NCBI GenBank assembly: GCA_963752235.1
Contig: CAVVXL010000011.1
Span: forward strand, 128,599-192,598
DNA: 64,000 bases
Origin: an uncultured Acidobacteriota bacterium
GTDB taxonomy: Bacteria > Acidobacteriota > Thermoanaerobaculia > Multivoradales > UBA5704
Reading direction: 5' to 3'
Within the stretch, counting starts at the first letter, position 1, and every line of letters begins with the position of its first letter. Shown piece after piece: positions 4,032 to 32,261 of the stretch. The notes beneath the pieces are model-generated. The model was not told the DNA's origin and searched no databases. It was given only the letters and a program-made list of their open reading frames with translations. The position numbers and the translations under genes are program-made.

Positions 4032-5795
<1,764 letters not shown>

Positions 5796-5813
5796 CCGCT
5801 TGCCGTAGACCGC

Positions 5814-5844
5814 GGGAGCTTACCGGGTGGCCCGGTAAGCTCCC
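5814..5844 (+). terminator. perfect 14-bp hairpin GGGAGCTTACCGGG-tgg-CCCGGTAAGCTCCC downstream of pilB
   Basis: Read directly; 19 nt after the pilB stop; followed by TT. Confidence 0.55.
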
Positions 5845-5889
5845 TTCCCGTCAGATCCCGGGACAGCGCGGTCGATCCGCGGACCTTCC

Positions 5890-6248: not shown

Positions 6249-7201
6249 GTGGCGCCCAGTACCGCTCCGGCGGACGCCGTCGCGCCCCGCGCGGCAAGGG
6301 TCGTGGCCGCGAGGCGCACGAAGGCAATCCACAGCAGATCCGCCCCCAGCAGATGGACGACCTGGAGCCACACCGGCGCCAGGAGGAGCACGTTGATGCC
6401 TCCCAGCGCCATCTGGAGGCCGACGAGCCCCGCCGTCCAGACGGCGAAGCGCCGCGGCGCCCCGGCGAGCGGCCCCTGCATCACCGTGATCGCCAGATAG
6501 AGCGCGAGGAGACCGGCGGCGACGGCGATGCCGGGATGGAAGAGGCGCAGGCGGATCAGCAGGTGCGCCGTCGGGGAGAGGTCTGCCCGGAGGGCCGCCG
6601 CCAGCGACCGCGAAGGGAACAGGGTGTCTCCCAGCGCCGCCGTGGCGCCGCTCACCCCGGAGAGGAGCAGGGCGACGAGCGCCACGGCGAAGCCGGCCCC
6701 GGTCGCCCCCTGCCCGCGCAGGCGGAACGGCGCGCCGCCGCTCGCGAAGTGGGCGGTCAGGGTGAGCGCCGCCAGCAGCAGGAAGGTGTTGACCAGGTGC
6801 GTCGCCCCGAACATCGCGCGCGCCATCGAAGGGTTGTCCGCCACCAGCCGGAACAGCACCAGAGCCGCCCCCACCGCCGCCTCCCCCACCATGAAGGCCA
6901 TCGCCCAAACCGCCGCCGCGCGGGTTGCATGGCCGCGGGGAAAGGCACGGAATGCCCACACCAGGAGCCCCACGACCATGAGGAGAGCGATGCCGCTGGT
7001 CAGCCGGTGTGAGAACTCGATGACCGTCGCGATCCTGGGAGCCTGCGGCAGCACCATCCCGTTGCAGAGAGGCCAGTGGCTCCCGCACCCCGCCCCCGAC
7101 CCCGTAGCCCGCACGATCGATCCCCAGAGCACCACCAGGACGTTGACGGCGAGGGTCAGCCAGGCGTAGCGGGGGAAGGCGCGGGGGGAGGAGGGGTGCA
7201 T
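6224..7201 (-). CDS. ctaA: heme A synthase (COX15/CtaA family)
   Basis: GSIVRATGSGAGCGSHWPLCNG, multiple TM helices, conserved His residues. Confidence 0.8.
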   Translation of the reverse strand: MHPSSPRAFPRYAWLTLAVNVLVVLWGSIVRATGSGAGCGSHWPLCNGMVLPQAPRIATVIEFSHRLTSGIALLMVVGLLVWAFRAFPRGHATRAAAVWAMAFMVGEAAVGAALVLFRLVADNPSMARAMFGATHLVNTFLLLAALTLTAHFASGGAPFRLRGQGATGAGFAVALVALLLSGVSGATAALGDTLFPSRSLAAALRADLSPTAHLLIRLRLFHPGIAVAAGLLALYLAITVMQGPLAGAPRRFAVWTAGLVGLQMALGGINVLLLAPVWLQVVHLLGADLLWIAFVRLAATTLAARGATASAGAVLGATEAYRAGR

Positions 7202-7266
7202 GGGGGGATGATAGCGCCTTCGAGGGGGTGGCCTTCTCGAGGTTGGGGATGATCGAGATGGTGTTG

Positions 7267-7481
7267 CCTTCGAGAGACGTCCCGCCGTCCCCGTGGCCTG
7301 CGAAGGGTGTCGTTATGGGCTGGGAACGTCTCTACGGGACGGTTGCAGCACATGGGACCGATGCCGCGTTTTCGGGCAAATCGGAATCGCCGGGTTCGCG
7401 ACGACGGTCCCGTAGAGACGCTCCCAGCGCATAACGAGAACCTCGGCAGGCCACGGGGACGGCGGGACGTCTCTTCGCAGG
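7267..7481. repeat. ~215-bp nested imperfect palindrome (two ~77-nt arms, 61-nt centre)
   Basis: Arm 7267-7343 is the reverse complement of 7405-7481, by eye about 85-90% matched. An AGAGACGT/ACGTCTCT module occurs four times in alternating orientation. Confidence 0.8.
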
Positions 7482-7515
7482 GCAGGTCCTCACCGCCGGC
7501 AACACCCTGGTTGGT

Positions 7516-19274: not shown

Positions 19275-21005
19275 ATGGCCCCGATGAAGAGATCCGCGAC
19301 CGCCCTGCTGCTCGCCCTCCTCCTGCCGCCGGCGGCCGGCGCCGCCTCCGTGCCGGCGCCGGCCGGTACCGGGGGCGCGGTCGCGGCCGCCGACCCGCGG
19401 GCCGTGGAGACCGGCCTCGCGATCCTGCGCGCCGGCGGCAACGCGGTGGATGCCGCGGTGGCGACCGCGCTGGCTCTCGCGGTGGTCTATCCGGAGGCGG
19501 GGAACCTCGGCGGCGGCGGCTTCGCCGTGGTGCGCATGGGAGGGGACTTCGCGGCGTTCGATTTCCGCGAGACGGCGCCGTCTGCCGCGCGGCACGACAT
19601 GTACCTCGACGAGCAGGGAAAGCCGCTCGAGAACGCCTCGCTGGTCGGTCCCCTCGCCGCCGGGGTGCCCGGCTCCCCGGCCGGCCTCTACGCGCTGCAC
19701 CAGCGCTACGGCCGTCTCCCCTGGGCGCGGGTGGTCGCCCCGGCGCGGAGCCTGGCGGCCGACGGTTTCCGGGTCGACCGCCATCTCCACACCCTGCTCG
19801 GCCTGGCGGAGACCCGCAAGCTCCTCGGCCGCTTCCCCGAGAGCGCCGGCGTCTGGCTCCCCGGCGGCGAGCCGCCGGCGACCGGCAGCCTGCTCCGCCT
19901 CCCCGACCTCGCCGCGACCCTCGGCCGCTACGCGGAGCAGGGGCCGCAGGCGATCACCGCGGGGCCGGTCGCCGCCGCCGTCGAACGGGTGTCGAAGCAG
20001 CACGGGGGAGTCCTCACCGCCGCCGACCTCGCCGCCTACCGGCCCGCGTGGCGGCAGCCGCTCACCTTCGAGGCCTTCGGCTGGCAGCTCGTCTCGATGC
20101 CCCTCCCCTCCTCGGGCGGGGTGATCCTCGGGCAGACCCTCGGCCTGCTCGAGCGGCTCGGCTGGGGGAAGCTCCCCCGCTTCGGCGCCGACCGCGACCA
20201 CCTGCTGGCCGAGGCGCTCCGGCTCTCGTTCGCCGACCGCTACCTGCTCGGCGACCCGGCGACCACCCGGGCGACGCCGGCCCAGCTCCTCGCCCCGGAG
20301 TGGATCGCCCGGCGGGCCGCCCAGATCGACCCGCGGCATGCCACCCCCTCCTCCCGGATCAAACCGTGGCCCGACGCCGCGGCGCCTTCGGCAGCGGGCA
20401 ATCCCGGCCGTGGCGGCAGCGAGACGACCCATCTGGCGGTGGTCGACCGCGACGGTAACCTGGTCTCGCTCACCACCACCCTCAACGACCTCTTCGGCAG
20501 CGGGCTATGGGTCCCCGGGGCGGGGTTCTTCCTCAACGACGAGATGGACGACTTCGCCACCGCGCCGGACCGGCCCAACCTGTTCGGCCTCGTCCAGGGG
20601 GAGGGGAACGCCGTGGCGCCGGGCAAGCGGATGCTCTCCTCGATGGCGCCGGTGATCGCCTGGAAGGGGGCGGAGGCCTACGCCCTCGGCGGGCGCGGCG
20701 GCTCGCGGATCCCCACCAACGTCCTCCAGGTGCTGCTCAACCTGCTGGTCGACGGCGACCCTCTCCAGGCCGCGCTCGACCGCCCGCGCCTGCACCACCA
20801 GGGGCTTCCCGACCGCCTGGAGGCCGAGCCCGACGCGCTGTCGCCCGAGACCCGCGCCGAGCTCGAACGGCGCGGCCACGCGATCGAGATCACCAGCGCC
20901 ACCGCCAAGGTCCACGCCGTTCAGCTCCTCCCAGGGGGCCGGATGGCGGCGGCCTCCGACCCCCGCGGCACGGGGGCTGGAGGCGTGGTCGAGCCGGAGC
21001 GGTAG
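19275..21005 (+). CDS. ggt: gamma-glutamyltranspeptidase
   Basis: Signal peptide, AGGNAVDAAVA, GNLGGGGF, and the autoprocessing site GGSETTHLAVVDRDGN. Confidence 0.9.
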   Translation: MAPMKRSATALLLALLLPPAAGAASVPAPAGTGGAVAAADPRAVETGLAILRAGGNAVDAAVATALALAVVYPEAGNLGGGGFAVVRMGGDFAAFDFRETAPSAARHDMYLDEQGKPLENASLVGPLAAGVPGSPAGLYALHQRYGRLPWARVVAPARSLAADGFRVDRHLHTLLGLAETRKLLGRFPESAGVWLPGGEPPATGSLLRLPDLAATLGRYAEQGPQAITAGPVAAAVERVSKQHGGVLTAADLAAYRPAWRQPLTFEAFGWQLVSMPLPSSGGVILGQTLGLLERLGWGKLPRFGADRDHLLAEALRLSFADRYLLGDPATTRATPAQLLAPEWIARRAAQIDPRHATPSSRIKPWPDAAAPSAAGNPGRGGSETTHLAVVDRDGNLVSLTTTLNDLFGSGLWVPGAGFFLNDEMDDFATAPDRPNLFGLVQGEGNAVAPGKRMLSSMAPVIAWKGAEAYALGGRGGSRIPTNVLQVLLNLLVDGDPLQAALDRPRLHHQGLPDRLEAEPDALSPETRAELERRGHAIEITSATAKVHAVQLLPGGRMAAASDPRGTGAGGVVEPER

Positions 21006-21071
21006 GCACCCGCGGCCCGCCGGCCCGCCGGCCCGCCGGGGTATAGACTGGGCTCCAGGAGGGCTCGAACC

Positions 21072-22256
21072 ATGTTCAGCCTGCGGAGCTCCACCCCAGT
21101 CGTCCTCAAGGTAACCCTCGCCGTGGCGGCGATCACGGTCACCGTCACCGCCGCCGCCGCCCAACAGCCCCCGCAGTTCTCCGAGCAGCTCACCGTCCGC
21201 GAGCGGCCGATCCTGGTCAGCCTGCCCGGCAACCTGGCGAACGCACGTCTCCAGTCCGGCGACTTCCAGGTGCTGGTCGACGGCCAGCCGCGGGAGGTGA
21301 CGCGGGCCGAGCCGCTCTCCGCCCCCGGCGGGGCGCCGTGGACGATCGTGGTCTACGTCGACGAGGTGCTGGCGAGCCCCGCCACCCTCTTCGCCTCGGA
21401 GGTGGCGCTGGCCGGCCATGCCCGGGAGCTCTCCCGGCTGGGGAGTGTCGAGGTGGTGACCGCGGCCGGCCCGGCTCCCCGGATCGTGCTCCCCGCGACT
21501 CTCGAGGCGCGGGCCGTCGAGGGGAAGCTCGCGAGCCTCGGCTCGGCGGCGCGGATCGAGCGCGACCGCTCGAGCGGAAAAAAGCGCGCTGCACCCGCCG
21601 CGGACCAGGTCGGCCGGCAGGTCGACGCGCTCCTCGCCTTCCTGGCCGCCCACCCCGCGAGCGGACCGCGCCTCCTCTTCCTGATCGCCGACGGCATGGA
21701 CCTGCCGGCGGACCAGGTGGCGGTCCTCGCCAGCAAGCCGGCAATGCGGATGCCGGCAATGCCACCGCCGCGCCGGAGGCAAGCCCGGCGAGGCGACCCG
21801 GCGGTCACTTTTCGCCACGCCGCCCGCATCCTGGCGGCGCAGGGATGGACCGTCGTCCCGCTGGCGGTGCGTCCCGAGAGCCCGGGAAACCCGACCATGC
21901 CGCGCACCAACCTCGAGCTCTTCCGCGAGTCGGCAAACCCATCGGGGCATGCCAACGGCCCGCCGCCCGACCTCCCTCCGCACGCGCGCAAGACGACCCC
22001 GCTCTCCTATTCCGGGGTGATCGACCTGGCGAGCGAGCCGCGCATGGCGATCCTCCACACTCTCGCCGAGGCCACGGCGGGCACCGTGGTGGGCTTCGAG
22101 GTCCAGCTCGCAGCCCTGCTCGCGGAGCTGCCGCACCGCTGGACGATCTGGATCACGGTGCCTGAGACGAAAGAGGGCGCCGGGGACCTGCACACGCTGA
22201 CGGTGAAGCTGCCCGGCCGGCAGACCGACGCGCGGGCGCCGGCGTGGGTGCTCTAG
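21072..22256 (+). CDS. secreted VWFA-related (TIGR03436-like) protein
   Basis: Signal peptide, then F-x-E-x-V...DF-V-VDGQPREV, a pattern resembling the acidobacterial VWFA-related domain. Assigned from memory. Confidence 0.5.
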   Translation: MFSLRSSTPVVLKVTLAVAAITVTVTAAAAQQPPQFSEQLTVRERPILVSLPGNLANARLQSGDFQVLVDGQPREVTRAEPLSAPGGAPWTIVVYVDEVLASPATLFASEVALAGHARELSRLGSVEVVTAAGPAPRIVLPATLEARAVEGKLASLGSAARIERDRSSGKKRAAPAADQVGRQVDALLAFLAAHPASGPRLLFLIADGMDLPADQVAVLASKPAMRMPAMPPPRRRQARRGDPAVTFRHAARILAAQGWTVVPLAVRPESPGNPTMPRTNLELFRESANPSGHANGPPPDLPPHARKTTPLSYSGVIDLASEPRMAILHTLAEATAGTVVGFEVQLAALLAELPHRWTIWITVPETKEGAGDLHTLTVKLPGRQTDARAPAWVL

Positions 22257-22268
22257 AACGGCGCCCTC

Positions 22269-25200
22269 CTATCCGGCCGCGCGCAGCTCCTCGGCCGCAT
22301 GATCGAGGACCATGCGCACGGTCTCTCCCAGGGTCTGCGCGGAGAACGGCTTCTGCAGCGAGACGGGCGCCTCCGGCCCGCCGTCGGAGAGTAGCTCCTC
22401 GTTGTAACCCGAGATGAAGACCACCCGCGTCATCGGGCGCTCGGCGCGCAGCCTCCGGGCGAGCTCCGATCCCTTCATCTCCGGCATGGTGACGTCGGTG
22501 AGCAGCAGCTGGATCGAGCCGCGGTGGAGGCGCGAGATGACCAGCGCCTCCTCGCCCGACCCCGCCTGGAGCACCCGATACCCGCGGCTGACCAGGATCT
22601 GGTGCAGCACGGCGCGCACCTCCTCCTCGTCCTCGACCAGCAGGATCGTCTCCGACCCGCGGTCCGAGGCGCTGGCCGGCACCCCGCCGCGGGCCCCTTC
22701 GCTCTCCTGGGTGACCGGCAGATAGACCGAGAAGGTGGCCCCCTCCCCCGGCGCGCTGTTGACGAAGATCTGGCCGCCGCTCTGGCGCACGATGCCGTAG
22801 GCGGTCGACAGGCCGAGCCCCGTCCCCTCCCCCTTGGTGCTGAAGAACGGCTCGAAGACGCGCCCTTGCGTGACCGTGTCCATGCCGACGCCGGTGTCGG
22901 TCACCGTCAGCAGGACGTAGGAGCCCGGCAGGACGTCCGCGTGGGGGGCCGCCGGACCGTCCGCACCGTCGGCGACAATCTCGAGCGGCACGGTACGCAG
23001 GTTGAGGCGGCCGCCGGTCGGCATCGCGTGGCGGGCGTTGACGGCGAGATTGACGATCACCTGCTCGAGCTGCCCCGGGTCGATCTTGACCTTGCCGAGC
23101 TCGGGGTGGAGGTTGGTGGCCAGGTGGATGTCCTCGCCGAGCAGCCGCTGGAGCATCTTCTCGAGCCCCGAGACCACCCCGTTGAGGTTCATCACCCGGG
23201 TCTCCATCGGCTGCCGGCGGGCGAAGGCGAGGAGCTGCTTGGTGAGCGCCGCCGCGCGCTGCCCCGCCTCCTTGATGCCGGTCAGGTTGCGGGTGAGGAA
23301 GGCGTCCTCCTCGTAGCGCTCGAGCAGCAGGTCGCTGTAGCCGAAGATGGCGAGCAGGCAGTTGTTGAAGTCGTGGGCGACGCCGGCCGAGAGGCGGCCG
23401 ATCGCCTCCATCTTCTGCGAATGGAGGAGCTGGCGCTGGAGCGTCTTGTTCTCGGCCTCGTCGCGCTTGCGCTGCGCGATGTCGCGGATGGCGACCACCG
23501 AGACCTCCTCGCCCTGGAAGAGGTAGCGCTTGCCGGCGATCTCGAGGTCCACCGTCGAGCCGTCGCTCTTGAAGCCGACGCTCTCGCGGGGGACGCCCGC
23601 GAGGTCGACCTCGTCGGCGACCAGGTCGGAGAGCCGGCGGCCGAGGATCTCGTCCGGGTCGCGGCCGAAGATGGCGAGCAGCGCGTGGTTGACCTCGAGC
23701 ACCACGCCGTTGCGGACGATGGCGATCCCTTCGAGGGTGGCCTCGAAGAGGGTGCGGAAGCGCTCCTCGCTGCGCCGGATCTCCTCCTCGGCGGCCTTGC
23801 GCTGGGCGATCTCCTGCTGCGCCTTGTCATAGAGGCGAACGTTCTCGGCCATCGGGGCGATCTGGTTGGCGACGGTCGACAGCAGGTGGATGTCGCTCGC
23901 CGGGAAAAAATCGTCCGGGTCGCGCCGGCCGATCAGCCAGACGCCGACGGTCTGCGCCTGCACGATGAGCGGGATCACCAGCCGCACCCAGGAGAGCGTG
24001 GGATCGGCGGGGCCCTGCGGCAGGTAGCGGCCGCTCTGCGCGAGCAGGGCCTGCAGCGCCTCGCGCGCCGGCTCCGGCCCGCCGCCCGGCACCGCCTGCT
24101 CGTAGAGGGTCTCCCGGCGCCCCTCCGCGAAGAGATAGAGCGCGGACTGGCGGATCAGCAGGGTGGGCAGGATCTCCTCGGCGACCACCCGCCCGAGGAC
24201 CTCGCGGTCGAAGGCGGTGGGAATCCGCTCCGAGACGATGCCGATCACCTCCTCCGCCGTGTGCTTGATGCCGAAGACGTAGCGGTCGACCAGCGCCTGG
24301 AAGCGGTCGCGCAGCAGCGGCACCGCCGCCATGTAGGCGAGGGAGACCGCGAGCAGCGTCGCCAGGAAGTCGCCGGTGATCTGTTTCCAGTGACTGCAGA
24401 TGGCGAAGAAAACGATCGTGTACGACGAGAACAGGATCGCCGAGAAGGTGTAGATGCCGAGGAAGCGGTTGGCCCGCAGCTCGAGGGCGCCGAGGCGATG
24501 CTTGTAGATGGCATAGAGGTAGCTCATCGGCAGGATCGGGATCGACGTCGCCGAGATGCCGAGCATGAAGGGGTAGAAATTGCGGAAGTCCTGGGCAACG
24601 TGGCGGAACCAGGCGAGCAGCACCCCGTGGAAGACCACGAAGGGGACCAGCCCGAGGGTCACGCCGAACAGCATGATGCGCACCGCCACCTTGGTGGCCG
24701 GGTCGACCGGCAGGAAGAGCCGGACGAGGAGCAGCATCAGGGAGAGCAGGACGCCCGCCAGCGCATACCAGACGAACGAGTATTCGAGCTTCTGGAGCAG
24801 CAGGAAGAAATCGAGAACGGACAGCGTGAGCGCGACGCCGTAGAAGAAGACCTGCCCCACCCGCTGCACCCGCTTGCCGAGCAGATCGCTGGGCAGGATG
24901 GTGTGCAGGTGCAGCGAGAGCGGCAGGGAGAACCAGATCACGACGTGGAACAGGAAGGCGGCGCCCGCGGTGCGGGCCGCGAACCCCGACGAGATCCAGA
25001 GAGCGGTCACGTAGCTGAACAGGATCAGAACCAGCCAGCGTTCGTCGCGGGGGCGCAGGAAGATGATGACGACCGTCCCCATCAGCCAGAAGACGAGGGG
25101 CGAGAACATGTCGTAGAGGAGCTGCGAGATCTCGACACGCATCCCGCGGAGGCGGATGTCGCGTTCGAACGTCCGGCCGTCGCGGATGAAACGGATCGGG

Positions 25201-25502
25201 GCCGTCCCGTGCTTGCCGAACAGCCCGGGAACCGACAGATGGCGATCGTGGACGAAGTTCTGGAAATCGACCCCGCGGATCGAGATCACCTGATCGCCCA
25301 CCGTGAGGCAGCCCCCCGGCGGCCCGACGCACGGATAGGCCGAGACGACCTTCCAGTCGGTCGAGCTCAGCGTAAAGCCGAGATCGGGAAAGGCAGCGAC
25401 GTACGAATAGTAGACGCAGGGGAGGAGGACGAGCAGCGAGACGAGGACCAGCAGGAGGTCCAGCGCCTTCCAGGAGGAGGAGGAGGAGTGTCGGGTATCC
25501 AT
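22269..25502 (-). CDS. polytopic hybrid sensor histidine kinase: TM1, PDZ-like domain, ~9 TM, GAF, PAS, HisKA, HATPase, REC
   Basis: VGDQVISIRGVDF...IRFIRDGRTFERDIRL (PDZ-like). H-box AGVAHDFNN. G-boxes DTGVGM and GTGLGLS. REC: ILLVEDEEEV...LLLTDVTMPEMKG. Confidence 0.9.
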   Translation of the reverse strand: MDTRHSSSSSWKALDLLLVLVSLLVLLPCVYYSYVAAFPDLGFTLSSTDWKVVSAYPCVGPPGGCLTVGDQVISIRGVDFQNFVHDRHLSVPGLFGKHGTAPIRFIRDGRTFERDIRLRGMRVEISQLLYDMFSPLVFWLMGTVVIIFLRPRDERWLVLILFSYVTALWISSGFAARTAGAAFLFHVVIWFSLPLSLHLHTILPSDLLGKRVQRVGQVFFYGVALTLSVLDFFLLLQKLEYSFVWYALAGVLLSLMLLLVRLFLPVDPATKVAVRIMLFGVTLGLVPFVVFHGVLLAWFRHVAQDFRNFYPFMLGISATSIPILPMSYLYAIYKHRLGALELRANRFLGIYTFSAILFSSYTIVFFAICSHWKQITGDFLATLLAVSLAYMAAVPLLRDRFQALVDRYVFGIKHTAEEVIGIVSERIPTAFDREVLGRVVAEEILPTLLIRQSALYLFAEGRRETLYEQAVPGGGPEPAREALQALLAQSGRYLPQGPADPTLSWVRLVIPLIVQAQTVGVWLIGRRDPDDFFPASDIHLLSTVANQIAPMAENVRLYDKAQQEIAQRKAAEEEIRRSEERFRTLFEATLEGIAIVRNGVVLEVNHALLAIFGRDPDEILGRRLSDLVADEVDLAGVPRESVGFKSDGSTVDLEIAGKRYLFQGEEVSVVAIRDIAQRKRDEAENKTLQRQLLHSQKMEAIGRLSAGVAHDFNNCLLAIFGYSDLLLERYEEDAFLTRNLTGIKEAGQRAAALTKQLLAFARRQPMETRVMNLNGVVSGLEKMLQRLLGEDIHLATNLHPELGKVKIDPGQLEQVIVNLAVNARHAMPTGGRLNLRTVPLEIVADGADGPAAPHADVLPGSYVLLTVTDTGVGMDTVTQGRVFEPFFSTKGEGTGLGLSTAYGIVRQSGGQIFVNSAPGEGATFSVYLPVTQESEGARGGVPASASDRGSETILLVEDEEEVRAVLHQILVSRGYRVLQAGSGEEALVISRLHRGSIQLLLTDVTMPEMKGSELARRLRAERPMTRVVFISGYNEELLSDGGPEAPVSLQKPFSAQTLGETVRMVLDHAAEELRAAG

Positions 25503-25588
25503 GTCCGAAGCGATGCCGGAAGCGCCACCGGCGCTTCTTCGCCGTCCTGCACCACCGTCGTTTCCGCGCCTAAAGGTTCAAGGCGCCC

Positions 25589-25618
25589 TTTATAGCAGGC
25601 TTCACCGGCTGCGGTCCA
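25589..25618 (-). promoter_or_regulatory. promoter candidate for the kinase gene (TGGACC-N18-TATAAA on the minus strand)
   Basis: Hexamers read directly, about 90 nt upstream of the kinase start. Confidence 0.2.
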
Positions 25619-25641
25619 CTTGGGGTGGGAGCGAGGCGACC

Positions 25642-25679
25642 CGCGAGCCCCCGGTCTCTCGACCTCCGGGGGCCTCGCG
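25642..25679 (-). terminator. GC-rich hairpin ~45 nt downstream of pepA (possible attenuator/terminator before the kinase)
   Basis: CGCGAGCCCCCGG-N11-CCGGGGGCCTCGCG, one bulge, no U-tract. Confidence 0.35.
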
Positions 25680-25722
25680 GACGCCGGCGGCGACCGTCCG
25701 GCCGAATCCCGGCCTTCCGCAA

Positions 25723-25917
25723 TCAAGCGTGGGCGATTCCAATGCCCGAGCCCGTAGGATCGGCAGGATCGTTGACGGGAGGCCACTCCGACCATCCGGG
25801 CGACGCGTTCGCCAGCATCGCCTTCCTGTCGAGCTCACCCACACGGCGCAGGATCTGGAACAGGAAGCTGGTCTCATTCTTGGCCGCAAAACGGGTACCG
25901 AATTCACTCATTGACAT
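25723..25917 (-). CDS. 64-aa candidate precursor peptide pepA (MSMSEFGTRFAAKNETSFLFQILRRVGELDRKAMLANASPGWSEWPPVNDPADPTGSGIGIAHA)
   Basis: GGGAGGG sits 7 nt before the ATG. It is a paralogue of pepB (same length, shared leader, WxxWPP box) and lies between the prenyl-synthase-like gene and the kinase. Confidence 0.7.
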   Translation of the reverse strand: MSMSEFGTRFAAKNETSFLFQILRRVGELDRKAMLANASPGWSEWPPVNDPADPTGSGIGIAHA

Positions 25918-26262
25918 GATAGATCCCTCCCGGTTAAAGCTTTCAACCCATTCAAGGTTTGAGTGTCGATGGACGGAAATCCACGGGGTTTCGCGCTTCC
26001 GGGCGGGGCGCGCGCCGGCCCGCGTGCCGCCATCACCGGCCTGACGGAGCGCGAGCGCCAGGAAATTTGGCGAGCTCGGGGCGAGGAAATCGGATTCGCA
26101 GGAAGATTCTCGTTCAGCCGGGCCGGCTGGAGAAGCTTGACTGCGCTGCTCAACGTATCCCGACAGAACGTGAGCATTTCAAAAACTCCTAGAGCATCTG
26201 CGGCGGAGCGCCGGAGACGCTTGAAGTATAAGCCGCGACGAGATCCGGACTCGAACCTCGCC

Positions 26263-27216
26263 TCAGTGGAGCGCCAGCATCGAGGGATCCTCGACGCCGA
26301 CCCTTTCCAGCAATCGATACAACGGCCGCGTATGCACTTCGATCAGCTGTTCGACCGGTTCCGAATACCGCAACGGTATCCCGGCGAACACCCGCTGCAA
26401 TTCATGCGAGAGCTCGACCAGCTTGAGCGTGCAATAGCTGACCGCGCCGCTGCGGAAGAGAATCCTCTGCGCCGCGGCGAGCGCTTCCGGATCTTCGACC
26501 CGCGCGGAAAGCCGCACGAAATCCTCCTGCTCGGCGTGCCCCGCGGTCATCGCGTAAAGCAGCGGCAGGCTGTTCGACCGCCGCTGCCAGTCAGCGCGCG
26601 CCGGCGTTTCGAGCGCGTCCGTGAGGTCGTCGCTGACCTGGATGAAACGGCCGAGAGCGCGCCCCAGAAGGGCGAGCTGTCCGGCCGCCTGGGGCGCCGC
26701 GCCGCCGAGCAGCGCGCCCATGCGCAACGCCTCGCCGAACAGCGGCGGAGTCTTGCTCTCGACCACCTGCCAGTATTCCCGTTCGTTCGCCAGCTCCCGC
26801 GCGTCGAGGTGCTGCCCGTAGCAGGTGGCGATCGACATCTCAGCGAAGCTCGCCTGCACCGCCGTACGGACCGCCGCGGGCGCCTCGGCCTGCTCGAGCA
26901 GCAGGTGGCCCGCGGCCTGGAACGCCAGCCCCAGGTTCGCCGCGCGCCCCGCTCCGATCAGGTGGTAGTCGCCCAGCGGGTCCTCGTCCAACATGTCGTC
27001 CACCAGATGGATGCTGATCACCGAGCAGAGCACCGCCGCCGCCGCGGGAAGCGCCGCCTCCTCCGTGCCGCCCACCGCCAGGGAAGCGGTTACCGGGTGC
27101 TCCCAGACCGAGATCGCATCCTTGTGGGTGACCCGTTCGACCACCTCCTGCATCAAGGGCCAGGAGGCCGCCATGGGCAATTTGTTAATTCTCGATTTTA
27201 ATTCATTAAATCGCAC
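26263..27216 (-). CDS. polyprenyl-synthase-fold protein, ComQ-like candidate peptide prenyltransferase
   Basis: FARM-like IHLVDDMLDED, SARM-like IQVSDDLTD, ESKTPPLF. No GGKRxR or RRG motifs. GTG start with GAGGGAG 7 nt upstream. Confidence 0.85.
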   Translation of the reverse strand: MRFNELKSRINKLPMAASWPLMQEVVERVTHKDAISVWEHPVTASLAVGGTEEAALPAAAAVLCSVISIHLVDDMLDEDPLGDYHLIGAGRAANLGLAFQAAGHLLLEQAEAPAAVRTAVQASFAEMSIATCYGQHLDARELANEREYWQVVESKTPPLFGEALRMGALLGGAAPQAAGQLALLGRALGRFIQVSDDLTDALETPARADWQRRSNSLPLLYAMTAGHAEQEDFVRLSARVEDPEALAAAQRILFRSGAVSYCTLKLVELSHELQRVFAGIPLRYSEPVEQLIEVHTRPLYRLLERVGVEDPSMLALH

Positions 27217-27250
27217 CGCAAAAACTCCCTCTTTGCGAAATCATTTAGAA

Positions 27251-27282
27251 CGGCCCCGGAAGGAATCGCCTCCCGGGAGCCG
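27251..27282 (-). terminator. hairpin downstream of pepB (9-bp stem with a bulged A)
   Basis: CGGCCCCGG-N13-CCGGGAGCCG, read directly; 77-108 nt after the pepB stop. Confidence 0.25.
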
Positions 27283-27358
27283 GCCACTTCTTGACGATCA
27301 GCATAAAACCGCAGGACGACAAATAAGCAGATTTCATGCCGATGAGCAGTCGAACCCT

Positions 27359-27553
27359 TTAGGCTTGCATGGCGAGCGAAAGGGCGCCATCACCGGCCGG
27401 CGGCCACGCGCCCCAGTCGACCAGGATGTTGTCGGTTCCTTCCGCCAGCATGGCGCGGACATCCTCGACTAGGCTCAGATTCCGCAGCGCCTGGAAAAGA
27501 TGGCCTTCTTCACGTTTGGACGTCAGCTTCGAATAGAAATCATGGATCTGCAT
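27359..27553 (-). CDS. 64-aa candidate precursor peptide pepB (MQIHDFYSKLTSKREEGHLFQALRNLSLVEDVRAMLAEGTDNILVDWGAWPPAGDGALSLAMQA)
   Basis: Internal ATG of ORF 27359..27601, with GGGGAGAG 7 nt upstream. Paralogue of pepA. Confidence 0.7.
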   Translation of the reverse strand: MQIHDFYSKLTSKREEGHLFQALRNLSLVEDVRAMLAEGTDNILVDWGAWPPAGDGALSLAMQA

Positions 27554-27689
27554 GGCGTAGCTCTCCCCTCTTGGAGGGATGTAGGTCCCCCCGACAAACA
27601 ACGTTTATGGGTTTACTGCTTACAACTACGAAATGAGCTTGATGAGGTCGTCAGGCGGGATCAGCAGGCATCTCGGAATCTCCCCATAG

Positions 27690-27717
27690 GAAAAACTGCA
27701 AAGCAAAAACTGCAAGG
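27690..27717 (-). promoter_or_regulatory. tandem direct repeat (minus strand CCTTGCAGTTTTTG CTTTGCAGTTTTT) upstream of pepB, candidate regulator site
   Basis: Two 13-14-bp units read directly, 140-165 nt upstream of the pepB start. Confidence 0.3.
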
Positions 27718-27816
27718 ACGAAGACGCAGAGTCCGCGCGCTCGTCGTGTTCTTAGTGTACCAGAGGGTGGATAGCGGGACACTCCCCTAACACTCCCGCG
27801 CGCTGTGTCGGTAGTG

Positions 27817-29088
27817 TCAGCTCAACGGAGAGGACGGCGCGGCCCCGAGCGGCTCGAGCACGCTCGGGCGGTCGGCCTCGGAGCCCCGCTTGAGGAGCTC
27901 GGCGAGCTCGCGGCCGGGCAAGGGACGCTGGAAGAAATAGCCCTGCGCGTAGTCGATGCCGAGCAGGCGGAGCACCTCCGCGTCCTCGGCGGTCTCGACC
28001 GCCTCCATCACCGTCGCCGTGCCGGCGCGCGCCGCCATCTCCGCCGTGCTCTGGACGATGATCTGCTTGAACGGATCGTGCGCCAGCCCGCGGCAGAAGG
28101 TGCCCGAGATCTTGAGGAAGTCCGGATGGAGGTCCTGGAACAGGTTGAGGTTGCTCGACCCCTCGCCGAAATCGTCGAGCGCGATGCGGAAGCCCCGCTC
28201 GCGCAGCCGCTGCAGGGTCGACGCGAAGGCGCTGGGATTGACGATCGTCTGCTGCTCGGTGAGCTCGAGGACGATGTCTTTCTCCTGCAACCCCGCGGCG
28301 TGCACGGCGTCGCAGAGCCGCGCGGCGAACTCGGGGTTGGTCAGCGACCGCGGCTGCACGTTGAGGAACGTGGCGAGGGTGTTGCCGAGGTAGACCACCT
28401 CGGTCAGGGCGGCATGGATGCAGATCATGTCCGCCTCGAAGAGGAGCTCCTTCTGCGCCGCGTAGGCGAGGAAGACCGCGGGGCTCCCCAGCACCGAGTG
28501 GATCGGCCCGCGCGCCAGGCTCTCGACTCCGAACACCTCGAAGCGCAGGGCGGCGTCCTGCAGCTTGACGACCGGCTGCAGGACGGCGCGGATCAGGTTG
28601 GCCGCCATGAAGTCCTCGAGCAGCTCGACGTGCTGCACCTCCCCCTCTCCCTCGAGGGGAACGCCGGGGGCGAGGCAGACCGCGCGGCGGTCCAGCAGGT
28701 AGCCGCGCAGCCGCGTCAGCCCTTCGGACTTCTCGAGCACCGCGGTGACGCCGAGGACGGAGCACAGGTCGCGCACCGCCTGGTCGACGTAGCCGCTCAG
28801 CACGTAGACCGCGGTGTCGGGGAAGTTGGCGGTGACGAAGCGGACGAGGCGCATGCCGTCGAGCCCGCCGAGCTGCGAGACCGAGAGGTCGGTGATCACC
28901 ACGTCGAAGCGGAAGCACCGCAGGAGGGCCTCGGCGGCCTCGATCTCCATGCAGGTGGTCAGCTCGATACCCGGCAGCCGGAGGCAGGCAGCCAGCGTGT
29001 CGACCACGATCGACTCATCGTCGAGGATCAGGACCCGAAGCACGGCGTCAGTGTCTTTCCATCCGGAGCGAGGAACCGCGCCAGGCAT
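27817..29088 (-). CDS. response regulator with REC and EAL (c-di-GMP phosphodiesterase) domains
   Basis: REC: VLILDDES...VVITDLSVSQLGGLDG. EAL domain: VLELTEQ, ALDDFGEGSSNL, LKISGTF, MEAVETAED, AQGYFFQRP. Confidence 0.85.
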   Translation of the reverse strand: MPGAVPRSGWKDTDAVLRVLILDDESIVVDTLAACLRLPGIELTTCMEIEAAEALLRCFRFDVVITDLSVSQLGGLDGMRLVRFVTANFPDTAVYVLSGYVDQAVRDLCSVLGVTAVLEKSEGLTRLRGYLLDRRAVCLAPGVPLEGEGEVQHVELLEDFMAANLIRAVLQPVVKLQDAALRFEVFGVESLARGPIHSVLGSPAVFLAYAAQKELLFEADMICIHAALTEVVYLGNTLATFLNVQPRSLTNPEFAARLCDAVHAAGLQEKDIVLELTEQQTIVNPSAFASTLQRLRERGFRIALDDFGEGSSNLNLFQDLHPDFLKISGTFCRGLAHDPFKQIIVQSTAEMAARAGTATVMEAVETAEDAEVLRLLGIDYAQGYFFQRPLPGRELAELLKRGSEADRPSVLEPLGAAPSSPLS

Positions 29089-29154
29089 CCCCCGCAGAAT
29101 CGTTATTGAACAACGGATAGGTCAGACGGAGGTTAACCGCCGCCTCGACGTAAG

Positions 29155-30705
29155 TCAACCGCCGCCCCCTTCCTGCTCGTCGTCCCGGCATCCCGTCTGC
29201 TTTCTCCACTCGTAGAGCTCGCCGATGTCAGTTTCCGAAACCAGGTTGTAGCATCTCAGCAGGCGCTTGGCCAGCGGGTCTCCGGGCGGACGTCCCCAGA
29301 CGTAGACGGCGTCGACCAGGTCCGCGTTCGGCTTGACGCGGTAGGAGCCCGGGTCGAGCGCCACGTTCGGGGCGTCGGGGAAAGTGACCGCGCGGCGGAA
29401 GCGCACCGGGAAGAAGTCGAACTTCCCCTCGTAGTTGTCCCAGTCGATCAGCCCCTTCTCGAGGGCCGTCCAGGAGATCGCGTGGGAGAGCACGTCGGTG
29501 GGGCCGGTGTGCGCGAAGTTGAGCGCCAGGGCGCGGGTGTCCGGCTTGACCGGCGCGAGACCGGCCAGATAGCGCTCGACCTCGCCGCCGAGCTCGCGGT
29601 AGCGCTCGGTCAGGTAGACGACGTTCAGCAGGGCCACCAGGGCCAGCGCCAGGGCGGCGATCGTCTCGCGCCGCCGCGCCTCCCCCGCCCCCACCCCCGG
29701 CGAGGACCGCAGCGACAGCCAGGGGAGCAGGACGAGGAAGGGATAGAGGCTGAGGCGGTTCTTGATCAGCCAGCCGCCGGCCATCCCGTCCGGGCTGACG
29801 AAGTAGACCCCGGCGAGCAGCAGGGCGAGGAGCAGAAAGGCGTTCTCGGCGCCGCGGTGCCGGGCCCGCCACACGGTGGCGGCGAGCAACGCCAGGAAGA
29901 GCGCGGCGAGGGCGATCCCCAGCCAGCGCTGGACGTCGCCGAGGGTGAACAGCACCTGGAGCCCGGCGAAGAATCCCACGAGCTGGCCGGCCGACCAGGC
30001 GGTCGGGTGGCTCTCGCCCCCCTGATGGGTGAGGAACCAGAGCGGCAGCACGATCTGCGGCAGCAGGATCGGGACGTGCCGGAGGTGCCGCCGCCAGCTC
30101 TGCCGCCTGAGGGTCGCGAGCCAGAGCACCGCGATCGCGAGCAGGGCGAGGGCGAGCGACAGGATGTGCGAGGCGTAGCAGAGCCAGAGCAGCAGGTTGA
30201 TCCCCACCGCGAAGCGCCACCCCGGGCGCTCGCGGTGCCGCCACCAGAAGCCGAGCGCGAAGAGGAACCAGGCGACGCTGAGCGAGAAGTTGTAAAAGCC
30301 GTACTGGAAGAGCTGGTGATAGGCGAACGGGAAGGCCAGGAAGGCCGGCCAGCGCTCCTCCGGCCGCACCGAGCCGGCGAGGTACCAGGCGCCGGCCAGG
30401 AAAGTGAGCACGTAGCCGCTGACGAAGAGCTTTTCGGCCACGGCCGGCGGCACGGCGGTCATCAGCAGCGCCATGCCGGCGTGGCCGATCCAGTTGGGAT
30501 AGGGCTTGCCGTTCACCTCGTAGTAGCGGGCGAAGAGCGGGTAGTGCCGGGTGTCGGCGTGGTGCAGCAGGATCCAGGCGTTGTAGGTGTGACAGGGGCC
30601 GTCCGTGGTCGGCACGTGGCGCACCACCCAGAAAGGCAGCACGTAGAGCACGGCCAGCGCGAAGAACAGGAGGCGCAGCCGGCGGGGGGAGAGCGCGAGC
30701 GTCAT
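29155..30705 (-). CDS. polytopic membrane protein of unknown function, paralogue 2
   Basis: C-terminal 516 aa of ORF 29155..33012, starting MTLALSPRRL. Shares the DGPCHTYNAWIL and PYPNWIGH motifs with 30702..32261. ATGA overlap with paralogue 1. Confidence 0.75.
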   Translation of the reverse strand: MTLALSPRRLRLLFFALAVLYVLPFWVVRHVPTTDGPCHTYNAWILLHHADTRHYPLFARYYEVNGKPYPNWIGHAGMALLMTAVPPAVAEKLFVSGYVLTFLAGAWYLAGSVRPEERWPAFLAFPFAYHQLFQYGFYNFSLSVAWFLFALGFWWRHRERPGWRFAVGINLLLWLCYASHILSLALALLAIAVLWLATLRRQSWRRHLRHVPILLPQIVLPLWFLTHQGGESHPTAWSAGQLVGFFAGLQVLFTLGDVQRWLGIALAALFLALLAATVWRARHRGAENAFLLLALLLAGVYFVSPDGMAGGWLIKNRLSLYPFLVLLPWLSLRSSPGVGAGEARRRETIAALALALVALLNVVYLTERYRELGGEVERYLAGLAPVKPDTRALALNFAHTGPTDVLSHAISWTALEKGLIDWDNYEGKFDFFPVRFRRAVTFPDAPNVALDPGSYRVKPNADLVDAVYVWGRPPGDPLAKRLLRCYNLVSETDIGELYEWRKQTGCRDDEQEGGGG

Positions 30706-32261
30706 GGGCTCGGCCGCGCCCCCGCGCGTTCGTTCTCCATCCGCTCCCACAGCACGCCGCCGCCGGTGTCGGAGAGGGGCCGGTAGAAGTTGCCCAGCCG
30801 GATGCCGAGCGAATGGCCCGGCGGCATCTGCCAGGTGTAGACGTAGTCCGCGCGGCGCTTCCACTGCCACATGCGCAGCTGCCCCGGGTGGGCCTCGATG
30901 TCGCCGATCGGCGGCTTCGACACGCCGGCGCGGAACTCGACCGGGAAGAAGTCGAAGGTCGCCTCGTAGTTGTCCCAGTCGACCAGCCCGCGCTCGAGGG
31001 CGCGGTAGCTCATGGCGTGGCCGAGGATGTCCACCTCGATCCCCCGCCCCGTGTGCTGGAAAAGGAGCGGCAGGACCCGGCTGCCGGGACGGACCGCGTC
31101 GAGCCCGGCGAGGTAGCCCGCCATCTCGCCGCTCAAGGTCCGGTACCAGCGGGCCACGTAGACGAGGTTGAAGAGCGCCACCAGGAAGAGGACCGCGACG
31201 CCGGCCCGGCGGCCCCGTGCGCCGAAGCCGGGCGCGAGCCAGGGGATCAGCAGCAGGTAAGGGTAGAGGCAGAGCCGGTTCTTCAGCATCGAGCCGCCGG
31301 ACATCCCCTCGGGGCTGACGAAGTAGAGCACCGCGAAGAGGGCGGCGAGGAGGAGGAAGGCGCGCTCCCCGTGTGTCGTCCCGCGCGGCTGGCGCCACCC
31401 CTCCCGCCGCAGGGTGAGGAGGAGGAGGGCGAGGAAGGCGAGCGCCATCCCCCAGGCCAGCCAGCGCTGGGGGCCGCCGAAGGCCGACATCGCCCCGATG
31501 CCGAAGAAGTAGGTCAGGAGCTTCCCGAGCGGCCAGTAGGCGGCGACGGTGGCGCCCCCCTCCCGCGAGAAATACCAGGCCGGCAGCACGATCTGCGGCG
31601 CCAGCACGGCGACGTGCGCCAGGTGGCGGCGCCAGGAGACCAGGCCGTCGTCGAGCACCGTGGCGAGCCAGAGCACCGCGATGGCGAGCAGGGCGAGGGC
31701 GAAGGAGAGGATGTGCGAGAAGTAGCAGAGCCAGAGCAGCAGGTTGATCCCCACCGCGTAGCCGGGCGAGAGGGGGCGCTCGCGGTGCCGCCACCAGCAG
31801 CCGACGATGAAGGGGAAGAGGGCGAGGCTGACCGCGAAGTTGTAGAACCCGAACTGGAACAGGAAGTTGAAGACGAAGGGGAAGGCGAGGAAGGCGAGCC
31901 AGCGGTCCCCCGATCGTACCGAGCCCACCAGGTACCACATTCCCGCCAGGAAGGTCAGCACGTAGCCGGTCGCCAGCAGCTTCTCCGCGACGAGAGGCGG
32001 CACCACGAACATCAGGAGCGCCATCACCCCGTGCCCGATCCAGTTCGGGTAGGGGGCGGCGTTGACCTGGTAATACTGCTGGAAGAGGGGGTACTGGGCG
32101 GGATTCGCGGACTGGCGGAGGATCCACGCGTTGTAGGTGTGGCACGGCCCGTCCACCGTCGGCAGGTAGTGGACGATCCAGAACGGCACGGCGTAGAGGC
32201 CGGCCAGCGTGAAGTAGAGCGCGCGGATCCAGCGCCCGTTGAGATCTGTCGTCGGTTCCAT
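30702..32261 (-). CDS. polytopic membrane protein of unknown function, paralogue 1
   Basis: 519-aa ORF with ~10 hydrophobic segments plus a ~150-aa C-terminal soluble part; collinear with paralogue 2. Confidence 0.75.
   Translation of the reverse strand: MEPTTDLNGRWIRALYFTLAGLYAVPFWIVHYLPTVDGPCHTYNAWILRQSANPAQYPLFQQYYQVNAAPYPNWIGHGVMALLMFVVPPLVAEKLLATGYVLTFLAGMWYLVGSVRSGDRWLAFLAFPFVFNFLFQFGFYNFAVSLALFPFIVGCWWRHRERPLSPGYAVGINLLLWLCYFSHILSFALALLAIAVLWLATVLDDGLVSWRRHLAHVAVLAPQIVLPAWYFSREGGATVAAYWPLGKLLTYFFGIGAMSAFGGPQRWLAWGMALAFLALLLLTLRREGWRQPRGTTHGERAFLLLAALFAVLYFVSPEGMSGGSMLKNRLCLYPYLLLIPWLAPGFGARGRRAGVAVLFLVALFNLVYVARWYRTLSGEMAGYLAGLDAVRPGSRVLPLLFQHTGRGIEVDILGHAMSYRALERGLVDWDNYEATFDFFPVEFRAGVSKPPIGDIEAHPGQLRMWQWKRRADYVYTWQMPPGHSLGIRLGNFYRPLSDTGGGVLWERMENERAGARPSP

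Follow-up and report, generated by a model that had tools for sequence, protein, structure and literature searches.

A ComQ-like candidate tryptophan prenyltransferase between two precursor-like peptides in a signalling cassette of Acidobacteriota

Does an enzyme of the polyprenyl-synthase fold, encoded between two small tryptophan-bearing peptides and next to a sensor kinase, build isoprenoid chains, or does it attach them to the peptides? The question is raised by a 64,000-nucleotide stretch of an uncultured Acidobacteriota bacterium (Thermoanaerobaculia, UBA5704; contig CAVVXL010000011.1), here called the window, to whose positions all coordinates below refer unless a locus is named. The enzyme gene, which we call Q, is the third of a cassette of five genes, all on the minus strand (22269-29088), in the order REC-EAL regulator, pepA, Q, pepB, hybrid histidine kinase. 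Judged from comparative sequence analysis and structural models, Q is probably a ComQ-like tryptophan prenyltransferase that would make lipidated peptide signals, with a peptide Trp as its acceptor. The genes of the cassette are as follows:

27817..29088, minus strand: REC-EAL response regulator with cyclic di-GMP (c-di-GMP) phosphodiesterase domains, first gene of the cassette (Pfam EAL 1.6e-46, Response_reg 8.3e-12).
27359..27553, minus strand: pepA, precursor-like peptide of 64 residues (leader hidden Markov model, HMM, 64.8 bits).
26263..27216, minus strand: Q, enzyme of 317 residues with a trans-isoprenyl diphosphate synthase (IPPS) fold, predicted peptide-tryptophan prenyltransferase (PF00348, 61 bits).
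25723..25917, minus strand: pepB, paralogue of pepA, 64 residues (leader HMM 51.1 bits).
22269..25502, minus strand: hybrid histidine kinase of 1077 residues (Pfam GAF, PAS, HisKA, HATPase_c, REC).
24213-25502, minus strand: ComP-like N-terminal sensor of the kinase, with a first transmembrane helix, a PDZ-like extracytoplasmic domain (about 25143-25385) and about nine transmembrane helices.

The open reading frame (ORF) of Q begins with GTG, a start codon that is supported because close homologues have the same length (315-317 residues) and align end to end. A first-pass annotation, made from the letters of the window, had picked out a first aspartate-rich motif (FARM), a second one (SARM) and the KT region. 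All three are in the translation, and since Q matches PF00348 (polyprenyl_synt) with E=1.3e-16 they belong to a genuine family match and are not chance strings. A GQxxD element is also present (YGQHLD, residues 133-138, with Q135 and D138). Along the protein, the elements that bear on its activity are:

27094..27111, minus strand: S36-V-W38-E-H-P41, aligned to the canonical GGKRxRP motif; W38 and P41 conserved, no conserved basic residue.
26980..27012, minus strand: FARM region IHLVDDMLDED, residues 69-79; D73, D74 and D77 conserved.
26965..26973, minus strand: G82-D83-Y84, at the canonical place of RRG, in a loop 5 residues shorter than in IspA and IspB.
26737..26760, minus strand: KT region ESKTPPLF, residues 153-160; K155 conserved.
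26617..26643, minus strand: true SARM IQVSDDLTD, residues 192-200 (Q193, D196, D197, D200).
26587..26592, minus strand: D209-W210, a family-specific pair after a 6-residue deletion of the canonical GK loop.

Q belongs to the trans-isoprenyl-diphosphate-synthase superfamily. An AlphaFold2 (AF2) model built with 24 family members reached a mean local confidence (pLDDT) of 89.7 and a predicted template-modelling (TM) score (pTM) of 0.90, and Foldseek aligned it to trans-IPPS structures with TM scores of 0.7-0.81. The best matches were chain-elongating synthases; Ord1, a farnesyltransferase acting on free Trp, appeared further down the same list, and canonical synthases and Ord1 were not separated. 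The fold therefore assigns Q to the superfamily and not to an acceptor, so that the structure prediction which the first-pass annotation had proposed confirms the superfamily and is silent on the substrate. The NCBIfam models place Q far from any named synthase: with the best synthase model it scores 41.5 bits (cut-off 475) and with the top model overall 83 bits (cut-off 450), and Q stays below the cut-off of every synthase model.

In farnesyl diphosphate synthase (FPPS), the diphosphate of isopentenyl diphosphate (IPP) is bound by the Lys/Arg of motif I, by the second RRG arginine and by the Gln/His that precedes the FARM, and the allylic diphosphate-Mg cluster sits on the FARM, the SARM and the lysine of KT. 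We aligned Q to E. coli IspA and IspB (from NC_000913.3) and to a canonical enzyme of Saprospiraceae. Neither GGKR nor RRG occurs anywhere in the 317 residues of Q, in line with the earlier failure to find an N-terminal GGKRxR(P). The counterpart of GGKRxRP is S-V-W38-E-H-P41 in the HMMER alignment and RVTHKD in the MAFFT alignment, and neither placement yields a conserved basic residue. The loop that follows the FARM is 5 residues shorter in Q (DESDMRRGKAT in IspB vs DEDP-----LGDY in Q), which means that RRG is deleted; the first description had this pair as replaced, and the arginines are indeed missing. The GK loop after the SARM is likewise 6 residues shorter than in IspA and IspB, and the His/Gln that canonical enzymes carry seven residues before the FARM (FARM-7) is V66 in Q. 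Thus, in the alignment against IspA, IspB and the canonical enzyme, the conserved IPP-binding basic residues are absent, and the RRG and GK loops are gone.

The same pattern extends over the whole family. A HMMER search of 1.84 billion cluster representatives returned 215 Q-family clusters (50% identity) at E<=1e-30, and conservation was computed on the best 150 of these 215 representatives. Residues D73, D74, D77, Q193, D196, D197, D200, D209 and W210 are 98-100% conserved (position 196 is Asp in 147/149), Q135 reaches 96-97% and D138 91%. Among basic residues, conservation of 60% or more is reached at three positions only, K155 (about 96-98%), position 230 (86%) and position 117 (64%), and the first 110 residues contain no conserved Lys or Arg. 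The family has conserved residues of its own instead, namely W38, N94, Y148, W149 and D209-W210. With the roles known from FPPS, this conservation pattern indicates that, throughout the clade, the active site has retained its donor half and lost its IPP half, as the first reading of the single gene had proposed. We are confident that Q does not elongate prenyl chains with IPP.

This bears directly on the simplest alternative, in which Q is an ordinary short-chain synthase of geranylgeranyl or farnesyl diphosphate (GGPP or FPP) that supplies isoprenoids, the small ORFs being incidental. Canonical IspA, IspB and GGPP synthases share with Q the fold, the FARM, the SARM, the KT region and GQxxD, and have the highest profile similarity found for Q. 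Both DDxxD motifs are intact, the best structural matches elongate chains, and most named Q homologues are called geranylgeranyl pyrophosphate synthase in the JGI annotation. Nevertheless, the deleted RRG and GK loops, the lost FARM-7 His, the lack of any conserved basic residue at GGKRxRP or RRG, the acquired W38, N94, Y148-W149 and D209-W210 and the scores far under the NCBIfam cut-offs all speak against it. The gene is, moreover, locked in a signalling cassette with Trp peptides in 68/68 loci. We consider such a synthase highly improbable.

Annotation within the family is inconsistent, one homologue at 64% identity (P0114) bearing the JGI name 'competence protein ComQ'. Longer proteins among the representatives were considered as prenyltransferase-cyclase fusions and rejected: P0196 is a read-through into the adjoining sensor kinase, and P0277 and P0278 (509 and 641 residues) are tandem duplications of Q-type domains. 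The first domain of both has a degenerate FARM (DNILD), recalling the pairs of catalytic and regulatory subunits of heteromeric prenyl synthases.

A kept FARM without the RRG and GK loops is also found in ComQ, the experimentally established enzyme that geranylates or farnesylates a Trp of ComX (PMC4008528; bioRxiv 10.64898/2026.08.29.745113). Members of the ComQ family (IPR033965) carry out this transfer with Mg, onto C3 of the Trp and with ring closure. The B. subtilis 168 ComQ sequence, 100% identical to a database entry, reads DDLEDEDN after the FARM, has no RRG and carries deletions at the same two loops as Q. The remark in the first-pass annotation that ComQ shows the DDxxDED context without RRG was thus correct. 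The resemblance stops at the second motif, which in ComQ is degenerate (Q-I-[SE]-[GN]-D-Y, or [N/G/S]-D-Y-x-x; the pseudo-SARM is defined as NDxxx with the first Asp lost, bioRxiv 10.64898/2026.08.29.745113) and in Q is a true DDxxD (Q-V-S-D-D-L-T-D). A ComQ HMM gives Q 17.5 bits, against 447-528 bits for its members. At the sequence level Q therefore stands outside the Bacillus ComQ family, having neither the pseudo-SARM nor a member's profile score.

The two families nonetheless resemble each other in other ways. Profile comparison with hhalign gave 59.6% for the A1 profile against ComQ and 98.1%, with a score of 100.9, for a diverse Q profile; a three-sequence canonical profile scored 57.2 against ComQ, and Q against canonical profiles 116-159.3. 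Because of the shared loop deletions, a ComP-like sensor (below) and the higher Q-ComQ profile score, Q fits a slowly evolving relative of the lineage that gave rise to ComQ. An independent recruitment of Q from canonical IPPS, toward which the HMM scores leaned early on, was dropped as the preferred view, convergence being less favoured given the two shared deletions, the ComP-like sensor and the profile score of 100.9.

What does such an enzyme act on? The first-pass annotation had noted candidate precursors on both sides of the gene, and this arrangement proved to be conserved. Both peptides consist of a leader, a W-x-x-W core and a variable tail, with the following elements:

27359..27553, minus strand, pepA: leader MQIHDFYSKLTSKREEGHLFQALRNLS, core D-W47-G-A-W50-P-P, 14-residue tail ending in Ala; Trp codons at 27413-27415 and 27404-27406.
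25723..25917, minus strand, pepB: leader MSMSEFGTRFAAKNETSFLFQILRRV, core G-W42-S-E-W45-P-P, 19-residue tail ending in Ala; Trp codons at 25792-25794 and 25783-25785.

The two are paralogues that share the leader M-x-[IM]-x-[DE]-F...L-F-Q-x-L-R and the core D/G-W-x-x-W-P-P. A Shine-Dalgarno sequence stands before each (GGGGAG 7 nt upstream of pepA, GGGAGGG before the ATG of pepB), and in the leader the third codon position has the highest entropy (1.39 bits; positions 1 and 2 have 1.00 and 0.79), which is the pattern of coding sequence. For pepA there was no match to a Pfam or NCBIfam family, and on 42 peptides these models gave scattered chance matches only, with no ComX, NHLP or Nif11 model among them. 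A leader HMM found 128 peptides in 68 non-redundant Acidobacteriota loci (two peptides in 56 loci, one in 10, three in 2); orthologues of pepA lie upstream of Q in the related loci and those of pepB downstream of it in 56/68. Among the 127 peptides that bear a core, the second Trp is present in all and the first in 120. The last residue is Ala or Val in 99/128.

Variation of the core appears to be shared between the partners of one locus. Pro follows the second Trp in both peptides or in neither in 51/57 loci, a figure inflated by shared ancestry. At locus L017 both peptides (5646-5858 and 7004-7501) have a one-residue core insertion giving W-x-x-x-W (DWGPAWP, GWGPEWP), a coordinated change in two paralogues served by one enzyme. 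Four loci (L061, L063, L065, L067) have a single peptide upstream of Q, with Met or Leu in place of the first Trp (MGIWNSG, MGIWDIG, LGIWESG). Two W-x-x-W cores per precursor are found in some downstream peptides (L036:7152-7556, L043:7338-7628, L044, L046, L049) and in Longimicrobium (L074:5719-5940), which suggests double modification or multi-core precursors.

The next step is to ask which parts of the cassette are inherited together. One-genome-per-species GTDB data contain 77 Q loci, nearly all in Thermoanaerobaculia or Holophagales, with relatives at 40-45% identity in Anaerolineales and Longimicrobium. The five-gene cassette recurs in about 68 Acidobacteriota genomes; its order is the same on three long contigs (L001, L002, L004), and the REC-EAL gene upstream of Q and a kinase with the same N-terminal sensor stand beside Q in every complete Acidobacteriota locus. 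The genes on either side change from locus to locus, so the cassette stands as a unit in itself.

Scanning metagenomes with a Q alignment chosen for its diversity added 80 loci that are 36-52% identical to the query. Where more than 500 bp of upstream sequence was available, a W-x-x-W peptide precedes the enzyme in 59/60 loci, 38 of them detected by an iterated leader HMM and 21 of the remaining 22 by inspection (a small ORF with related leader and W-x-x-W). In this non-Acidobacteriota branch the motif lies 0-4 residues from the C-terminus (...GWSGWGQ, ...QWFGWW), a position like that in ComX and StheX. Among the 41 metagenome loci with enough sequence, about 36 have a kinase with this sensor next to Q; in 25 it is encoded downstream on the same strand, in about 11 upstream and divergently. 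The Anaerolineales locus L077 has the order X-Q-kinase and then a gene for a GerE-type protein. Only the Acidobacteriota branch has REC-EAL. Enzyme, peptide and kinase thus recur together in distant relatives from Chloroflexota and metagenomes, and in Longimicrobium (Gemmatimonadota) two peptides and Q are kept without a membrane sensor kinase. Because distant loci keep Q with a W-x-x-W peptide, Longimicrobium even in the kinase's absence, the enzyme-peptide pair is the core of the association.

Individual loci depart from this scheme. At L004:4274-5359 (same contig as L006) a DDE_3/helix-turn-helix transposase on the opposite strand sits between REC-EAL and pepA, splitting the cassette without loss of any part. 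One metagenome-assembled genome, MFD06742.bin.2.42, has two copies (L039, L072) whose pepA genes are almost the same; L072 has a truncated Q match and a broken pepB ORF, so that it may be a copy in decay or one contributed by a co-assembled strain. Locus L068 (DASSNA010000160.1, 2474 bp), whose Q and sensor kinase are 57% and 45% identical, was assigned in binning to Solirubrobacterales (Actinomycetota); given the short contig, it is more likely mis-binned than a real occurrence in that phylum.

The tight pairing with the peptide weighs on a second alternative, that Q prenylates a small molecule such as free Trp or indole, or is a terpene synthase, the peptides being unmodified signals or regulators. 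The precedent is Ord1 (PDB 9V4G/9V4J), an all-alpha IPPS-fold farnesyltransferase of free Trp that matches Q at E 1.8e-7 to 5e-11. Ord1 shares with Q the FARM and the Q-x-x-D-D element that relays the indole N-H (Q216/D219 in Ord1, Q193/D196 in Q; StheQ has Q-x-x-N instead), and the enzyme-peptide link in Q is drawn from genomic context. Ord1, however, retains RR after the FARM and the GK loop, both gone in Q, uses a free amino acid and has no peptide/kinase cassette. The adjacency of enzyme and W-x-x-W peptide is, besides, the most conserved of all, as Longimicrobium and the 59/60 distant loci illustrate, and the invariant residue of the peptide is Trp, the sole acceptor known for trans-isoprenyl-diphosphate-synthase-like (trans-IDS-like) peptide prenyltransferases (PMC13290415). 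A small-molecule acceptor is accordingly an unlikely one in our estimation.

If Q modifies the peptides, as we prefer to think, what would read the product? The kinase consists of a 430-residue membrane sensor followed by GAF, PAS, HisKA, HATPase_c and REC domains. In an AF2 model of residues 1-430 (pLDDT 72.6) a single helix is followed by a beta-rich domain (residues about 40-120) and then by about nine membrane helices. The best local Foldseek matches of the beta-rich domain are the PDZ domains of DegS, DegP, EpsC, RseP and AlgW (probability 0.95-1.0, E 0.1-0.9), and Pfam PDZ matches the sensor at E=0.0099, below the family cut-off. Published modelling gives ComP ten transmembrane helices and a PDZ-like first loop of 85 residues, for which binding of ComX was proposed (PMC9620489). 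A ComP N-terminal profile of four sequences, from Bacillus comQXPA loci reached via ComQ homologues, aligned with the sensor in hhalign with a probability of 82.4% (E=9.9e-6); the 292 aligned columns are collinear and reach from the PDZ-like domain across the membrane helices. Controls stayed low (0.2% for reversed profiles, 1.1-3.3% for ten block-shuffles), and a single ComP sequence, before the four-sequence profile was built, had given 5.6%. On the output side, all EAL signature residues are present in the REC-EAL regulator when its sequence is read (ESL, N, ELTE, DDFG, K, EAVE, Q).

Divergence within the cassette is graded: over 49 complete loci the identity falls from 86.8% (median) for REC-EAL to 79.3% for the kinase core, 62.7% for Q and 56.1% for the sensor. 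In comQXPA systems, comQ, comX and the 5' part of comP show pherotype polymorphism, and the gradient is consistent with that pattern; it is not a demonstration of it, because sensor domains often evolve fast.

Set side by side, the cassette and comQXPA have much in common. Both pair an IPPS-fold enzyme with FARM followed by E-D-[N/P] and without RRG and GK loops, an adjoining precursor of 55-70 residues with an essential Trp, and a sensor made of a first transmembrane helix, a PDZ-like loop of about 85 residues and about 9-10 transmembrane helices. In both the genes are adjacent on one strand with no dedicated exporter or protease, and the signalling core has changed less than the enzyme, the peptide and the sensor. 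The published definition of comQXPA (Dogsa et al. 2014) asks for a ComX of 52-73 residues with a Trp within 5-10 residues of the C-terminus, a multi-transmembrane ComP with HisKA_3 (PF07730) and HATPase_c, and a ComA with REC and GerE/LuxR (PMC4008528). The length of pepA and pepB (64 residues) falls in the ComX range and their Trp position does not (14 and 19 residues follow); in the non-Acidobacteriota branch of the Q family, with 0-4 residues following, it does. The present system further differs in that two precursors flank the enzyme, with the W-x-x-W core 14-19 residues from the C-terminus, that the kinase has HisKA PF00512 in place of HisKA_3 and adds GAF, PAS and a C-terminal REC, that the regulator is REC-EAL and not REC-GerE, that the order is A-X-Q-X-P vs Q-X-P-A, and that the hosts are Acidobacteriota.

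The Bacillus loci yielded two observations of their own. Upstream of degQ-comQXPA, at a distance of about 1 kb and on the same strand, there is a gene for an EAL+HDOD protein (L165:2759-3988, also L166, L167 and L169; in L168 it is split into two shorter calls), and the presence of an EAL protein beside the Q-X-P module in both phyla may be coincidence. In B. mojavensis (L165:6175-8501) comP is split into two ORFs of 309 and 461 residues by a stop near 7104, and in L167 no comP is called; these may be natural comP-null variants or assembly errors.

Beyond Bacillus, three characterised enzymes offer comparison. StheQ of Sphaerobacter thermophilus (Chloroflexi) farnesylates the penultimate Trp of StheX in vitro and has a pseudo-SARM and a single Mg site (bioRxiv 10.64898/2026.08.29.745113). 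By its published description it resembles Q as a ComQ-like IPPS fold outside Firmicutes with an adjoining peptide of about 69 residues bearing Trp in the C-terminal region, and in having a FARM, a Gln three residues before the second motif and a K-to-Q spacing of 38 residues in both; the peptides of Chloroflexota Q relatives end ...WGWW or ...QWFGWW, comparable to ...GWWx in StheX. It differs in its DExxD and pseudo-SARM NDxxD (DDxxD twice in Q), in having stheX downstream only and in that no kinase or regulator is described for it. Searches of the PDB with the ComQ and Q profiles did not find StheQ, and its fingerprint Q..ND..D occurred in one unrelated case only among all retrieved proteins. 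PalQ of Paenibacillus alvei prenylates the terminal Trp of an NHLP-type precursor in a cluster that also encodes a kinase and was described as a RiPP (ribosomally made peptide with post-translational modifications) cluster (PMC10853753). The P domain of ChrPC prenylates an internal Trp, and all characterised trans-IDS-like peptide prenyltransferases act on Trp (PMC13290415). Again by description, both are trans-IDS-like peptide Trp prenyltransferases, PalQ with a histidine kinase and a leader-bearing precursor in its cluster; unlike Q, PalQ forms its own cluster in a sequence similarity network and in PalX the leader is of the NHLP type and the Trp strictly C-terminal, and ChrPC is fused to a terpene cyclase.

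PalQ brings up a third alternative, in which Q does prenylate the peptides but the products are not diffusible quorum signals but RiPPs, such as membrane-active antimicrobial lipopeptides, or peptides anchored in the envelope, with the kinase and EAL protein serving regulation or self-protection. The cluster of PalQ/PalX with its neighbouring kinase is a described RiPP case (PMC10853753). Prenylation raises the antimicrobial activity of peptides, some precursors here are double-core like multi-core RiPPs, and the release of lipopeptides from diderm cells is uncertain. Weighing the other way are a ComP-like sensor co-inherited with Q and X across phyla, the faster divergence of peptide, enzyme and sensor than of the signalling core, as in pherotype systems, and a cassette without immunity, transporter or further tailoring genes. 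We regard this as improbable, though the least so of the three alternatives.

Taken globally, the comparative and structural evidence supports the first interpretation of Q as an enzyme that would transfer a prenyl group to a peptide Trp. In the mechanism we propose, Q would bind and ionise an allylic diphosphate (geranyl diphosphate, FPP or GGPP) through FARM, SARM, KT and GQxxD, and the prenyl cation would be attacked by the indole of the second Trp of W-x-x-W (W50 in pepA, W45 in pepB), the Q193/D196 pair possibly being used as Ord1 uses Q216/D219. The conserved N-terminal leader would probably be the docking element. The lipidated peptides would in turn be processed, exported and sensed by the PDZ-like domain and membrane helices of the adjacent ComP-like kinase, for whose PDZ-like domain the free Ala/Val C-terminus is a plausible ligand. 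The kinase would then control the REC-EAL regulator and hence c-di-GMP levels. We infer prenyl transfer to Trp, the Trp that is used, secretion, sensing and the quorum-sensing role; that the prenylated peptide is a diffusible signal read by the adjacent kinase we hold to be evenly balanced.

Several points count against this reading. A Q HMM scores canonical IPPS at 66.5 bits and Bacillus ComQ at 8-28 bits, so that function is not transferable to Q by close homology, and StheQ, PalQ and ChrPC were set beside Q by description, not by sequence. Both Asp-rich motifs, Q193 and D196 occur in true chain-elongating synthases as well and are therefore not by themselves evidence for Trp prenylation. 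In Acidobacteriota a median of 14 residues follows the acceptor Trp, against the last 5-10 in ComX. The PDZ assignment of the sensor rests on sub-threshold scores, and the Longimicrobium loci do without the sensor kinase. Lastly, the hosts are diderm, so the release of a lipopeptide is not self-evident, and no protease or exporter gene lies in the cassette. On balance, Q should be filed neither as a GGPP synthase nor as a member of Bacillus ComQ; most likely it works like ComQ. Its clade is distinct and large, with a complete second Asp-rich motif and, in Acidobacteriota, two putative precursors, a ComP-like hybrid kinase and a predicted c-di-GMP phosphodiesterase output.

Around the cassette, a promoter and terminator scan of 25300-27900 found nothing, and an Rfam scan of 21000-30000 gave no match. 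The genes at 29155-32261 and 21072-22256 were considered as further members and set aside, having no Pfam match and no conserved adjacency elsewhere. The former region, on the minus strand directly upstream, encodes two paralogous membrane proteins of about 516-519 residues that both start ...LYxxPFWxVxxxPTxDGPCHTYNAWIL, match no Pfam family and are not beside the cassette in other genomes.

Prenylated-tryptophan pheromones have long been viewed as a peculiarity of Bacillus and other Firmicutes, and to our knowledge the first example outside that phylum, StheQ from Chloroflexi, came only in a 2026 preprint. The literature collection that was searched yielded no description of the Acidobacteriota cassette. 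The 2014 census had placed comQXPA in Firmicutes only (PMC4008528), and in August 2026 StheQ was put forward as an extension of ComQ-like systems to other phyla (bioRxiv 10.64898/2026.08.29.745113). We tentatively suggest, short of conviction, that the comQXP logic of a prenyl-transferring IPPS relative, a Trp-bearing precursor and a PDZ/multi-transmembrane kinase is old and widespread and not confined to Firmicutes. It would span at least 215 enzyme clusters at 50% identity and include diderm Acidobacteriota, Chloroflexota and Gemmatimonadota; the enzyme would be less derived, with a full FARM and SARM metal site, and Thermoanaerobaculia and Holophagales would use two co-evolving lipopeptide pheromones that signal into c-di-GMP turnover.

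If true, prenylated-peptide quorum sensing would here be described for the first time in a Gram-negative soil phylum. The cassette would extend the chemistry to the abundant and mostly uncultured soil Acidobacteriota and tie it to c-di-GMP, and hence to the choice between a biofilm and a motile lifestyle. It would also provide an enzyme clade that is large and diverse (at least 215 clusters) and has W-x-x-W as its defined recognition motif, and would correct a systematic mis-annotation, hundreds of Q-family proteins now being named GGPP synthase. Because both Asp-rich motifs are kept and the IPP site is lost, the Q clade is a natural intermediate for studying how a synthase is converted into a peptide-lipidating enzyme, and it is a candidate toolbox for site-selective peptide lipidation.

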